Source of the DNA: a virus
Taxonomy: Duplodnaviria > Heunggongvirae > Uroviricota > Caudoviricetes
Reading direction: 5' to 3' (one strand)
Virus record (IMG/VR): IMGVR_UViG_641736224_000031
DNA length: 42,289 nucleotides
The position numbers are program-made. Shown here piece by piece: positions 33,001 to 36,000 of this stretch. Position 1 is the stretch's first letter, and every line of letters starts with the position of its first letter.

Positions 33001-36000
33001 GCGTAGGGGTCAGTTTTTTCACTGTGGTACATGGCATCATAGATAATCATTGCAGCGACACCTGCCTGTCCTGCATCTGTGACGGATATATGCTCAAGGG
33101 CTACGGCCATTGCGTGTTTCAACCTCTCATTTTCCACCTCAAGCACCACACGATTAGCCTCCAGCTCTTCTATGCGTTTTTTTGCTGCTCCCAGCTCAAC
33201 ACGCAGCTCCTGATAGTTAATCTCGCTCATTCTCCTTCCTCCCGCACTGCTGTTTTATATGCCCGAAGCACATGCGATGTTTTTCCTGACACAGTGCTTC
33301 TCAGAAAGAAAATTCCACTGGTGTTTATTACCAGATACGGGTCAGCAAGACGCAGCATATCCAGTATGTGATTATGTTTTCTTGTTTCCAGCACCGTACT
33401 TGAAATAAGCATATGTGACACGGGGCCGAAATCATGATATCTGATTTTCATATCATCACCCTGCTGTAAAAATTACCCGTTATCTCCTGTCGTTATTTTC
33501 TGTATGACATCACGATGCTTATTAATTTCCCGCAGCGCGGCGCATAAGCGCTCCCACTTCTGAACCTGACCTTTTGCCCGGCGCAGCTCGCGGTTAGCCA
33601 CATGCAGCGATGGTAAAATCAGACCATCCGGATGCTTTCTGATGAACGACGACTGTGACTGCACTGTGACCGCCACACTTTCAGTTTTAATTTCTTCCTG
33701 TGTTTCCGCTTCCCGGACTGGTAACGCAACACCTGCCGGCTGAGGAAAGGCTTTACCATCGGTTTCCGTTACCGATGCAGCTTTCGGCTCTGCCGGTAAA
33801 TTATCGCCCGGTATGCAGTAACGATATTTACCGTCCTGATTTACGCGAATCAGACGACCTTTGCTGACAGCCATCGCCAGTGATGAATTCGCCCGGCGGG
33901 AGGTAATCCCGAACATTAACGCCAGTTCGTCAGCCGACTGAGGACCATGCTGTTCAATCGCGTTAATCAGCATCTCTGCAGTGGTTTTTGGGGCCGCTTC
34001 AGTTGCCTCACTCGTCAGCCACCACATCGACCCCTTGTTATCAGCTTCGCCACGACGCTTCAGCTTCCAGAGTTCGGTAACAGCATCGTCACGGCTGATT
34101 TCAAGACGGGCTGCAATCTCGTGCGACGAGGCTTTTTTCAGTGCTTTCAGTGCGTCAAAAACGGTTTCCATTAAATTTTCCTCCCGGTAAAAATTACTTC
34201 TCAACTCAGACAAAACCGGCCGCCTTCCGGCGCTCATATTCCTGTTTCAGCAATTCAATTGGCGTTGGCCCTGGCGGGCGTTTGGGTGCTGCCAGTTGTC
34301 GCCGGACTGGCGGAACACTGAGGCCATTACCAACATGCTTTGCCCATTTCGTCAGCTGCCTTTCCACAAGCCGTTTTAACTCCCCTTCGGTCATCTGGCG
34401 CTCAATCCCCTTTGAACGCATCTCGAGGCAAATGTGGTACAGCACCGGCTGTGGCCACGGGTATTTATCACTCCCGTCGTACCGCCAGGATTCATTCCTC
34501 CAGCGACGGTACTCCTCCATCACGGCATCCACCGTCAGGCCAAATGGATTTGCCCCGCTCTCCGAAATCAACGCCACAAACTCAGCCAGATCCGGAGGCC
34601 ACGTTTCACCCGCCCGGCAGCGGTCCATGCACTGACGGCAGACCTGCCGGATTTGCTGTTCAGTCATCGCGCCAATCTGAGCAATCCAGAGCTTCGACGG
34701 CGCAGCCCCGTTCTTCTGGGTCCAGCGGTTCGAATACACCTCCCCCATAAGTTCCCACAGCTTCCAGGCCGTTTCCGTTGCTGATAAATCCGTTTTCACG
34801 TTCCCACTGTTCACGTGCTGCCCGAATTTCCTGAACTGCCCGTGATGCGGTGCCACCTGGTGCTGCATGGCTTACCCCCTTGCTGACTGGTTTTACCTGT
34901 GCCCTGACGTGCTGCACGTGACGGGCAAATTTCTGCTCCCACTGAACCTGCGTGAAAACCTTCCCCTCCGCCATCCAGTAATCCCGGAATGCGGCAAGCT
35001 CAGCAGGTGTAAACTCAGGCTCAGGCAGAGCCATACCCCACACTGCTGCCCGCTGTCGAAAATCCGGCGACGGTTGCCAGACTCCAGTCATCGGAAATTT
35101 CCCGATCGGTTCGCTCAGGCCGTCCAGGTATTCAGGTTCGGCTGTCTGCAACGACGCGTCATTCAACTCACCGGTCGTAGCACTCTCGCGCATGCGCGCG
35201 TTATGTGTGGGGTTTAATTCTTTATCTGTATCTGTATCTGTCGTGATTTGTCGTGACATATGCGTGACGCGTCGTGACTCATCGTGACAATCAGTGTTCT
35301 GCTTCCGCAGTCTTTCCCGCTCCCGCTGCGCTCTCTTGCGCTCTGCCGGGGATTTTGCGGTTTGCGAAACATTACCGTTATCCTCCTTCATCACCTGGCG
35401 TTTTTCCCATCCGGAAATAAGATCACCATCCAGAACTCGCCCCTGCATTGCATGCAAAATTGAATCAATCACGTCTTCCGTCACATCAAGCGCACTTGCT
35501 AAATCTTCCGTCGTGACATCAATGTGACCACGTAGTGACACGCCGTGACATGTCGTGACATTTCGTGACGCACTCACCAGAAGGTGGATATACACCGCCA
35601 TCACTGTTGCGATTGGCTGTCCTGAGACCCTGGCAATGGTTCGCCATTTGGGATCATTTGGCATGTCATGCCACAATCTGAGCCAGGCATTAGCCATACT
35701 CACCTCATCTGATACCGAACTTTACCCTCGAACATCCGGAAGAAATCCGGCATGAATATTGTTGGTCAATGCACGACAACAGCATTACCAGGCTGACCAC
35801 CACTGTTAGTCAGGGTGCCCCAGGCGATCGCCGCTGCGACAAAATCATCCACATCTTTCACCAGCCGATCCCTCCGTTCGACGATCTCACGGTAATATTC
35901 AGAGCTGTGACTGCGCATACGGGCCACCAGCAGAGGCGGCATTGCCTTTTCGATCGCCGGTAACAGAGCCTGAATTTTTTCAACAGCATCAGGGGTGTCT

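Follow-up and report, generated by a model that had tools for sequence, protein, structure and literature searches.

The placement of a phage replication origin inside the gene for its initiator is a textbook arrangement, and to our knowledge the origins of this kind that have been studied contain one repeat cluster each. At ori-lambda, a palindrome follows the A/T-rich tract. Two arrays of one short repeat that serve a single initiator are known from P4 (ori and crr) and P1 (incC and incA), where one array lies at the initiation site and the other acts from a distance, crr as an enhancer and incA, whose iterons function in P1 copy control, as a brake. The initiators in these cases are the P4 alpha primase-helicase and P1 RepA, and the arrays are located outside the gene or flank it.

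Among phage systems that resemble the locus described here, ori-lambda and the origins of Stx phages lie inside O; lambda iterons are imperfect inverted repeats of ~19 bp in a single cluster, and Stx phages 933W and P27 have six-iteron origins in which the extra iterons add 13 aa to the protein (PMC7466680). Replisome organisers bind direct repeats within their own genes (PMC8965321). In SPP1, oriL is situated inside initiator gene 38, and both oriL and oriR consist of direct repeats with an AT-rich unwinding element and are bound by gp38 (PMC6316719).

We analysed a stretch of viral DNA of 42,289 nucleotides (IMG/VR record IMGVR_UViG_641736224_000031), referred to below as the window. The element is a defective prophage of E. 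coli O157:H7, its structural genes frameshifted and its integrase truncated, and it carries espJ/tccP. At the O position of its lambdoid early-right operon, preceded by Cro-like and CII-like genes and followed by a P-like gene, lies an initiator gene whose reading frame (34660-35697, or to 35703) contains two arrays of a short repeat. The features of the locus are:

34660..35697, minus strand: initiator gene at the O position, 345 aa from the RefSeq ATG at 35697, with an alternative GTG at 35703
35513..35569, minus strand: array A, six GTCAC(G) units on the coding strand, which read GTGAC on the plus strand
35480..35484, plus strand: single inverted copy of the motif, 33 bp downstream of array A in gene orientation, overlapping codons D71-V72-T73
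35242..35288, minus strand: array B, four exact GTCACG units and one degenerate ATCACG unit
35200..35241, minus strand: A/T-rich tract, candidate DNA-unwinding element, A-rich on the coding strand, GC 0.325
35187..35198, unstranded: 12-bp G+C palindrome CGCGCATGCGCG, directly after the A/T-rich tract
34897..35097, minus strand: coding region of the DnaT-like domain (Pfam PF17948, 63.6 bits against a cut-off of 25)
34206..34667, minus strand: lambda-P-like helicase loader gene (Pfam PF06992), its start overlapping the end of the initiator gene

In gene orientation, array A is the upstream array (codons 43-62) and array B the downstream one (codons 137-152). The GTGAC units of array A start on the plus strand at 35513, 35524, 35535, 35545, 35555 and 35565, a spacing of 11, 11, 10, 10 and 10 bp (10, 10, 10, 11 and 11 bp when read along the gene). 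Exact units of array B start at 35253, 35264, 35274 and 35284, spaced by 11, 10 and 10 bp; with the imperfect fifth unit (CGTGAT at 35242-35247) included, the spacing in gene orientation is 10, 10, 11 and 10 bp. Four of the six exact units in array A and all four in array B extend to CGTGAC, and Tandem Repeats Finder assigned both arrays a period of 10. A first-pass annotation of this DNA had reported six and five copies at 10-11-bp spacing in two separate arrays. Both counts and the spacing hold, one of the five copies being the imperfect unit, and the arrays are indeed separate, but the gap between them (35289-35512) measures 224 bp rather than about 215 bp; counted between unit starts, the figure is 229 bp. 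Three or more same-strand copies of GTGAC within 60 bp occur only at arrays A and B in the 42-kb window, and the maximum cluster of six compares with never more than three in 1000 shuffles. A third GTGAC array, comparable to SPP1 oriR, was sought across the same window and none was found.

Comparison with related phages, which the first-pass annotation had suggested, revealed that both phased arrays are kept in homologues from Escherichia, Pseudomonas, Aeromonas, Bordetella, Serratia, Ralstonia and other genera, and that most gamma- and beta-proteobacterial relatives have both. At least three phased copies were present in each array in 36 of the 53 relatives analysed, and in all 36 the two arrays had the same core. 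The motif falls into at least five classes: GTCACG, GTAACG, CGAACGC, GWAACGC (that is, G(T/A)AACGC) and GCAACG, the last represented by Ralstonia phage Firinga at 38% protein identity. Sequence comparison thus shows that both arrays are conserved and that the motif changes in step between them; the finding of one motif in both arrays, even where it differs between lineages, supports the bipartite origin proposed at first pass.

The two arrays are not retained equally. Array A occupies the same place in homologues with three to six units, and its copy number varies independently of array B; four relatives (L044, L033, L036 and L045) do not have it, indicating that it is not essential for the family. 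Array B is present in nearly all relatives, including some without array A, and has five exact units in 71 close relatives, the fifth being degenerate in this prophage. A Microcystis phage relative (34% identity) showed no arrays, so the layout is not universal at that level of identity. Across relatives, 195 to 319 bp separate the two arrays, and the 15 distinct distances gave no preferred helical phase at periods of 10-11 bp (Rayleigh p 0.1-0.5). Helical phasing, as first described for this locus, is therefore a property of each array and not of the distance between them.

Whether the repeats could be explained by coding constraint alone, a possibility raised at first pass, was tested in a set of 24 homologues (median nucleotide identity 63%). 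Within the arrays the motif passes through all three reading frames (0, 1 and 2) in turn. For conserved residues the majority-codon fraction was 0.95 under the motif (13 columns) against 0.54 elsewhere (46 columns; Mann-Whitney p = 2.8e-7), and the codons fixed under array A are GTC, ACG, GGT, CAC and TCA. The single inverted copy has the same position in homologues, and the V72 codon beneath it is GTG, one of four possible Val codons, in every homologue with Val (92% of the 24). The homologous arrays are themselves phased, and the three-frame reading together with the synonymous-site test led us to reject a coding constraint or protein repeat as the cause of the arrays. Judged by codon usage, these results show that the repeats are selected at the DNA level and are DNA elements rather than protein repeats. 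In both arrays copy number changes in steps of 21 bp, corresponding to two units or seven codons; array A of this prophage has two more units than most homologues, a 21-bp insertion encoding TCHGVSL. It might be argued that a repetitive protein sequence, or replication slippage, produced the repeats incidentally and that they have no function as DNA, since the encoded peptide has recurring V-T, G-H and S-R pairs and the copy numbers of hexamers and units differ among close relatives. We regard the chance of this as close to negligible, because a unit of 10-11 bp does not make up a whole number of codons, synonymous positions are fixed under the motif and free elsewhere, and different motifs substitute in both arrays at once.

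An ATCTGT triplet and an AT-rich patch, the patch as a candidate unwinding element, had been noticed previously beside the downstream array. The three copies of ATCTGT lie at 35224-35241 (ACAGAT on the coding strand, encoding T-D-T-D-T-D) and were detected by Tandem Repeats Finder as 3.8 copies of period 6 at 35219-35241. GC content is 0.325 at 35200-35239, compared with 0.45-0.68 over the remainder of the initiator gene, and across relatives the 40 nt past array B have a mean of 69% AT against 46% for the gene. In this tract the relatives use GAT over GAC at 87:5 (159:135 elsewhere) and AAA over AAG at 75:11 (98:89 elsewhere); on this codon bias the tract after array B is selected as DNA, in support of the earlier proposal. 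Array A has no A/T-rich flank. The palindrome that follows the tract was found in 30 close relatives, one further locus (L006) carrying a variant, CGCGCACGTGCGCG, in which the palindrome is preserved, while distant relatives lack conservation here; the unwinding region may end at this palindrome. Searches for an Rfam family in 34000-37500 (E <= 1) and for a sigma-70-like promoter in 34500-36600 identified none.

The initiator (WP_001262409, annotated in RefSeq as 'DnaT-like ssDNA-binding domain-containing protein') matches PHROG 1408 and 3729, 'replication initiation protein', as well as PHROG 'replisome organizer' families at 5.6e-5 and 9e-4, and N-terminal fragments of it are named 'phage replisome organizer' by NCBI. 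Its domain order is a predicted winged-helix-like N-terminal DNA-binding domain, a linker and a C-terminal DnaT-like domain. The DnaT-like match covers residues 203-269 of the 347-aa open reading frame; the NCBIfam DnaT equivalog NF002770 scored 93 bits against a cut-off of 201, over residues 192-269 only, indicating that the protein is not a full-length DnaT. We presume that this domain contacts a helicase-loading partner or single-stranded DNA. The N-domain scored 16.4 bits against Pfam PF09681 (gathering threshold 23.3, E = 0.0092, profile positions 1-116 of 121), a family that one of 43 initiator family members matched at E <= 0.01. Pfam Phage_rep_O gave no match with the full initiator at E <= 0.01 or with its N-terminal 141 residues at E <= 10.

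An AlphaFold2 model of the N-domain (mean pLDDT 74.5) displays a helix-turn-helix and wing. Foldseek comparison of the model with the PDB returned weak winged-helix matches only (CAP, MarR, 4pta; E > 0.3), a profile search of PDB sequences with the N-domain produced no match, and the winged-helix assignment is weak. In the model, array A encodes A43-T62, a loop or hairpin between helix 29-45 and helix 63-70 that is predicted with lower confidence and accommodates the 7-residue insertion. Array B encodes C137-T152 in the inter-domain linker, after a basic helix (117-138) and before the DnaT-like domain. From its profile matches, the initiator is not a lambda O homologue but is remotely related to the replisome organisers; its C-terminus is DnaT-like and its loader partner P-like. 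The description of the gene as O-like in the first-pass annotation is thus apt for its position and its partner, but does not extend to homology.

The loader gene directly downstream matches PF06992 (E = 3.4e-16, 59.9 bits against a cut-off of 26) and PHROG 109, 'P-like helicase loader', and is named 'replication protein P' in RefSeq. Among relatives the downstream partners vary, being P-like, IstB/DnaC-like, DUF6475, primase-helicase or DnaB-type helicase. The genes upstream and downstream of array-bearing loci show no conservation across loci, and the C-terminal halves of the initiators also vary, leaving the N-domain as the sole constant partner of the arrays. Being part of the gene, the arrays are necessarily inherited together with the N-domain, and this linkage cannot alone identify the binding protein. 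The N-domain, the two arrays and the A/T tract make up a 500-bp cassette that is found linked to several unrelated partners for helicase recruitment, which points to modular exchange at the linker. The initiator family contains 1,847 clusters at 50% identity and is found in 661 of 5,426 complete E. coli genomes; the cassette is present in up to four copies per genome, O157 genomes included.

The locus resembles ori-lambda in having a putative origin inside the initiator gene, with one iteron set (here array B) in the inter-domain linker, an A/T-rich tract and then a palindrome downstream of the iterons, and a P-type loader gene following. It differs in that lambda iterons are bound by O dimers and form one cluster, whereas here direct repeats of 6-7 bp form two clusters 195-319 bp apart, one of them within the coding region of the DNA-binding domain, and in that the initiator combines a DnaT-like C-terminus with the lack of a Phage_rep_O match. 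As in Stx phages, extra iterons lengthen the protein, by 13 aa there and by 7 aa per two units here. The Gram-positive replisome organisers (Tuc2009 Rep2009, TP901-1 ORF13 and r1t ORF11; PF09681) likewise have direct repeats in the initiator's own gene, but the family described here is proteobacterial and its PF09681 match falls below threshold. In the accessible literature, outside which the primary papers lie, we found no Gram-positive phage described as having two separate arrays that co-vary in motif. SPP1 shares the use of one protein with two separate repeat sets; there the sets are ~13 kb apart with an AT-rich element at each, whereas here they are ~230 bp apart in one gene with one A/T tract. 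The presence of the same iteron in two separate arrays also recalls P1 and P4, from which this locus differs in its initiator family and in having the arrays embedded in three frames of the initiator's own coding sequence.

Taken together, we consider it probable (about 0.68) that the arrays are iterons, bound by the N-domain of the initiator, and that they jointly form the origin of this lambdoid prophage. We infer recognition of the iterons by the N-domain, unwinding at the A/T tract, helicase loading and an auxiliary role for array A. The iteron unit would be a core of 6-7 bp, (T)GTCACG on the coding strand, present once per helical turn in a single orientation, such that bound monomers would align on one face of the DNA. 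The core origin would consist of array B in the inter-domain linker, then the A/T-rich tract, then the G+C palindrome. Initiator bound at array B would help to melt the A/T tract, and host DnaB would then be brought in by the C-terminal DnaT-like domain and the P-like protein. Array A, ~230 bp upstream within the coding sequence of the DNA-binding domain, would be an auxiliary site that could raise the local level of initiator, make the nucleoprotein complex larger or looped, or exert feedback on transcription through the gene; the variable inter-array distance and its lack of helical phase argue against a rigid looped structure. A search for a model phage with this N-domain found none.

Array A could also act in the opposite direction. 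Array B and the A/T tract would then be the whole origin, with array A a negative control element for the same initiator that would titrate or handcuff it, or block transcription through the initiator and loader genes. The missing A/T-rich flank, the dispensability of array A in some lineages and its independent copy number are compatible with such a role, as is its location ~130 nt from the start of the coding sequence, where rightward transcription would pass over it, with no internal promoter found; up to four cassettes per E. coli genome would make titration between prophages conceivable. We nevertheless hold inhibition by array A to be unlikely. All of the demonstrated features are common to this and to the best explanation, only the sign of the effect being different, and the sequence does not separate a positive from a negative role, but the extra, weakly bound iterons of Stx phages are needed for efficient replication and are not inhibitory (PMC7466680).

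Recognition of the arrays by some other protein, either a host factor or another early phage protein such as the CII-like/YdaT-family protein, would be favoured by the weak fold assignment of the N-domain. We consider it very unlikely: lineages that share the same kinds of host have different motifs, contrary to what a conserved host factor would predict, the flanking genes vary across loci that keep the arrays, and neither a DnaA-box nor an IHF consensus was found in the region (35100-35760). The arrays might instead be two independent origins that arose by duplication of one ancestral origin, as the first-pass annotation had entertained, and their likeness in motif, orientation and spacing is what such an event would leave. 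However, their flanks share no similarity outside the repeat units, the A/T-rich tract and the palindrome occur at array B only, and array A is missing in some relatives; moreover, the layout is common to relatives down to 38% protein identity and is therefore not recent. Only a very slight chance is left for duplicated origins.

With the arrays as iterons of the N-domain, the question arises of which residues would read them. The five motif classes have a common ACG core after a variable triplet (GTC, GTA, CGA, GAA or GCA). The helices of the helix-turn-helix have no class-specific residues, and those that discriminate the GTCACG from the CGAACGC class occur only at 45-48 and 58, in the loop encoded by array A, and in a stretch near 108-114. 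It is conceivable, although distinctly doubtful, that the loop encoded by array A reads the variable half of the iteron. If it did so, a single mutation in array A would alter site and reader together, and origin specificity could evolve as a self-encoding unit.

In the accessible literature we found no description of these arrays or of the origin of this initiator family, and no experimental study of the family, although an earlier mention may exist; iterons are not a topic of the Eru paper on the replication regions of Stx phages. What appears to be new here is the second cluster, placed within the coding sequence of the initiator's own DNA-binding domain and found across a large proteobacterial family.

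Looking ahead, the arrays allow candidate origins to be annotated precisely and in a testable form in many prophages that E. coli O157:H7 and other pathogens carry. The motif variants, of which there are at least five, constitute a natural specificity-switch series for the co-evolution of initiator and site under a three-frame coding constraint. Because an O157 genome can hold up to four cassettes, cross-talk between prophages is possible: the initiator of one induced prophage might fire the origins of other prophages, including defective ones such as the element described here, or be titrated by them.

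The repeats lie within a minus-strand ORF (the initiator gene) that stands where O does in a lambdoid early-right operon and carries the RefSeq name 'DnaT-like ssDNA-binding domain-containing protein' in O157:H7. We term the six-copy set, upstream in gene orientation, array A, and the downstream set array B; each unit is taken as an iteron, a putative initiator binding site. The features are as follows.

34660-35697, minus strand: initiator ORF of 345 codons from the ORF list (alternative GTG start at 35703)
35513, 35524, 35535, 35545, 35555 and 35565, plus strand: GTGAC copies of array A
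35253, 35264, 35274 and 35284, plus strand: exact GTGAC copies of array B
35242-35247, plus strand: degenerate array B unit CGTGAT (ATCACG on the coding strand)
35187-35198: 12-bp G+C palindrome CGCGCATGCGCG, directly after the A/T-rich tract
1-241: espJ effector gene (annotation)
713-1579: EspF-repeat (tccP-like) effector gene (annotation)
41266-42057: truncated integrase gene, adjoined by an IS3-family (IS1203) transposase gene

As a whole, the window represents a defective E. coli O157:H7 lambdoid prophage that matches CP-933U/Sp14, with frameshifts in the portal, large-terminase, tape-measure, J and tail-fibre genes; its origin may have lost the ability to fire independently. Upstream of the initiator ORF are Cro-like and CII-like/YdaT-family genes, downstream is a lambda-P-like gene, and the opposite strand carries a gene for a LexA-type repressor. 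The stop of the initiator gene and the start of the P-like gene as annotated share 8 bp (34660-34667), suggesting translational coupling; the longest ORF in the P-like frame would begin far further upstream, at 34868. Elsewhere, three annotated tRNA genes (Arg, Arg, Ile; 28063-28312, minus strand) separate the antiterminator Q gene (28523-29212) from the genes on the lysis side.

Unit spacing is 10 or 11 bp throughout both arrays, and Tandem Repeats Finder called each independently at period 10. At least three same-strand GTGAC copies per 60 bp occur at only these two places in the 42-kb window, where the maximum of six compares with at most three in 1000 shuffles. Together with their flanks, these results show that the first-pass annotation described the arrays correctly (six and five copies at 10-11-bp spacing), with the small corrections that one of the five units is imperfect and that the two separate arrays are 224 bp apart, rather than about 215 bp. 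An exact fifth array B unit is kept in 71 close relatives (90-98% identity), and its degeneration in the window may represent decay within a defective element. A lone inverted copy at 35480-35484, 33 bp past array A, may also be part of the candidate site.

The repeats might have been a coding constraint only, reflecting repeats in the protein, which is the case that the first-pass annotation named as refuting its idea; the results below did not bear it out. Read along the gene, the unit is (T)GTCACG, and its 10-11-bp period shifts successive units between frames (2, 0, 1, 2, 1, 0 in array A; 1, 2, 0, 2 in array B), such that one DNA word is translated as A-S-R, V-T, C-H or G-H. Codon usage was compared among 24 aligned GTCAC-carrying homologues (pairwise nucleotide identity median 63%, minimum 57%) at residues conserved in ≥90% of the sequences. 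The 13 columns whose codons overlap the motif had a mean majority-codon fraction of 0.95 and 1.5 codons on average, versus 0.54 and 3.4 codons for 46 other conserved columns in the same domain (Mann-Whitney p = 2.8e-7). V47 and V61 are always encoded by GTC, G57 by GGT, H58 by CAC and S141 by TCA; in contrast, the protein-invariant residues R7, L8 and P13 each use four to six codons. The three-frame translation and the frozen synonymous codons rule out the protein-repeat reading, and we conclude from codon usage that the repeats are DNA elements. Val72, whose codon underlies the lone inverted copy, is GTG in all Val-bearing homologues of the 24-sequence set, which suggests DNA-level selection here too.

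A pattern scan in which each bacterial species was represented by a single genome identified 52 loci (gamma- and beta-proteobacteria, and one Sphingomonas), a viral-contig scan gave 80 close relatives, and phage records supplied Escherichia, Pseudomonas, Aeromonas and Ralstonia phages; the initiator family comprises 1,847 clusters at 50% identity (E ≤ 1e-3), or 909 at E ≤ 1e-10. At least three phased copies were present at both positions (nt ~129-190 and ~355-490 of the gene) in 36 of the 53 loci long enough for analysis, and in array B only at seven. Array A is absent from L044, L033, L036 and L045, which retain a short array B and the A-rich tract. The motif falls into classes: GTCACG (Escherichia, Pseudomonas, Aeromonas, Bordetella, Serratia and others), GTAACG(C) (L026, L028, L040, L041), CGAACGC (a dozen beta- and gamma-proteobacterial loci and one metagenomic podovirus), G(T/A)AACGC (L035) and (T/G)GCAACG(C) (Ralstonia phage Firinga, 38% protein identity), all sharing an ACG core after a variable triplet. 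In every case the two arrays of a gene belong to the same class, counting as concordant seven loci scored CGAAC versus AACGC, both being parts of the CGAACGC unit. Such a concerted switch of all units under a three-frame constraint is hard to explain except by one protein reading both arrays.

Copy number varies by 21-bp steps, equal to two units or seven codons, so that the frame is kept: the window and its closest relatives have an extra TCHGVSL in array A (six units versus four), and array B of enterobacterial members has an extra HMSRQIT-type segment relative to Pseudomonas and Aeromonas phages. Inter-array distances run from 195 to 319 bp overall, with 227-229 bp the rule for most genes of the GTCACG class, and no helical-phase preference was found; thus any loop between the arrays must be flexible. 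At one locus (L027, Erwinia phyllosphaerae; nt 159-186 and 411-456) both arrays pack the same motif differently, as overlapping units CGTCACGTCACGTCACGTGAC at 5-bp spacing that include inverted copies. Two others, L048 (Serratia MAG) and L055 (Pantoea), are without arrays A and B and instead carry CTACG/CGTAG repeats at gene nt ~320-380 and ~650-690, surrounding a segment that is GIY-YIG-like by eye only (YVYYV...GIS.NPW); this arrangement may represent another type of origin or a mobile element inserted into the linker.

The first-pass annotation had also placed a repeated hexamer and an AT-rich patch beside the downstream array, and both are evident: the 40 bp at 35200-35239 have the lowest GC content in the initiator gene (32.5%), and Tandem Repeats Finder reports TCTGTA x3.8 at 35219-35241. 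Across 43 relatives the 40 nt past array B average 69% A+T versus 46% for the gene. Codon counts in the tract are GAT:GAC 87:5 (159:135 elsewhere) and AAA:AAG 75:11 (98:89 elsewhere), biases that indicate DNA-level selection on this tract. The hexamer is ACAGAT or AAAGAT, coding T-D or K-D, and numbers from 3 to about 6 units among close relatives (L006, L066, L072, L097); L045 has eight GATAAA units in a run and nine GAT codons. The hexamer behaves as a coding microsatellite within the presumed unwinding element. The palindrome CGCGCATGCGCG was found in 30 close relatives; the L006 counterpart, CGCGCACGTGCGCG, differs in sequence and is still palindromic, and in more distant relatives (L010, L015) unrelated C-rich/G-rich elements take its place.

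The N-terminal ~135 residues (the N-domain, predicted to bind DNA) are the only component common to all loci. A DnaT-like C-terminal half is shared by the window, L005, L009 and L041, the other loci having unrelated ones. Immediately downstream, the window and L009 have a P-like gene, L041 an IstB/DnaC-like gene, L042 and L035 a DUF6475 gene, Pseudomonas phages a gene for a large primase-helicase-type protein, and Firinga dnaB. AlphaFold2 modelling of residues 1-141 with 43 homologues (mean pLDDT 74.5) predicts helices at 4-14, 16-25 and 29-45, a lower-confidence loop/hairpin (46-62), helices at 63-70 and 74-84, a beta wing (85-96), a disordered stretch (103-115) and a long basic helix (117-138), a topology that fits a winged helix-turn-helix (HTH). 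Foldseek against the PDB gave only weak matches (CAP, MarR, plasmid initiator; E > 0.3), and PF09681, the Pfam replisome-organiser N-domain, aligned over nearly its full length below threshold (16.4 vs 23.3 bits). Relatives are labelled 'replication initiation protein' (PHROG) or 'phage replisome organizer' (NCBI). The initiator protein has no lambda O family match in Pfam, so the gene is O-like, as first annotated, in position and partner, not in ancestry.

The coding product of array A is loop 43-62, part of the same domain that is presumed to bind the array. Comparison of the GTCACG and CGAACGC classes showed no class-specific residues in either HTH helix; columns that distinguish the two classes occur solely in this loop (45-48, 58) and around residues 108-114. 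Since the iteron change itself forces the loop differences, these prove nothing alone. If the N-domain binds the iterons, specificity determinants must lie in the loop or near 108-114; that the conserved helices read the ACG core and the loop reads the variable triplet is a more unusual and improbable arrangement. Were it true, site and reader would be encoded in the same nucleotides.

Taken together, the shared motif class of the two arrays in every gene supports a bipartite iteron origin, one of two readings offered by the first-pass annotation. The other, a duplicated origin, is rejected: array A is without an A/T flank and is absent in some lineages, and for these reasons we read it as an auxiliary site. 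By analogy, one initiator N-domain would occupy each helical turn of the direct repeats, all on a single face of the DNA, the A/T tract (35200-35241) would melt, and the C-terminal DnaT-like domain with the P-like protein would deliver host DnaB. Array A could raise the local initiator concentration or build a larger complex; alternatively, its role could be negative, through titration or as a block to transcription across the gene, and the sequence is compatible with either sign of the effect. All functional readings of the arrays and the initiator family suggested here derive from comparative sequence analysis.

Iterons with an unwinding tract inside an initiator gene are already well known. 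A palindrome belongs to the ori-lambda layout, and array B, the A/T tract and the G+C palindrome follow the same order. Ori-lambda lies within the O gene linker, iterons preceding an AT-rich region, and the Stx phages 933W and P27 have two extra iterons that are weakly bound yet required for plasmid establishment (PMC7466680); array A could work as proposed for these. Replisome organisers of lactococcal P335 phages bind direct repeats inside their own genes (PMC8965321), and SPP1 gp38 binds direct repeats at oriL within gene 38 and at a second origin 13 kb away (PMC6316719). Unlike in these systems, the window units are very short, one per helical turn, and are split between two arrays of a single gene, about 230 bp from each other, one of them within the DNA-binding domain's coding sequence, with concerted motif switching across the family. 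No prior description of such a two-array origin was found in the full text open to search, and the phage records include no model phage with this N-domain.

Over the origin region the window is 100% identical to many O157:H7 chromosomes, and the 561-bp origin segment is present in 661 of 5,426 complete E. coli genomes, in up to four copies per genome and typically three in O157:H7. One iteron class thus seems to be common to several prophages residing together, raising the question of cross-activation or titration between them.
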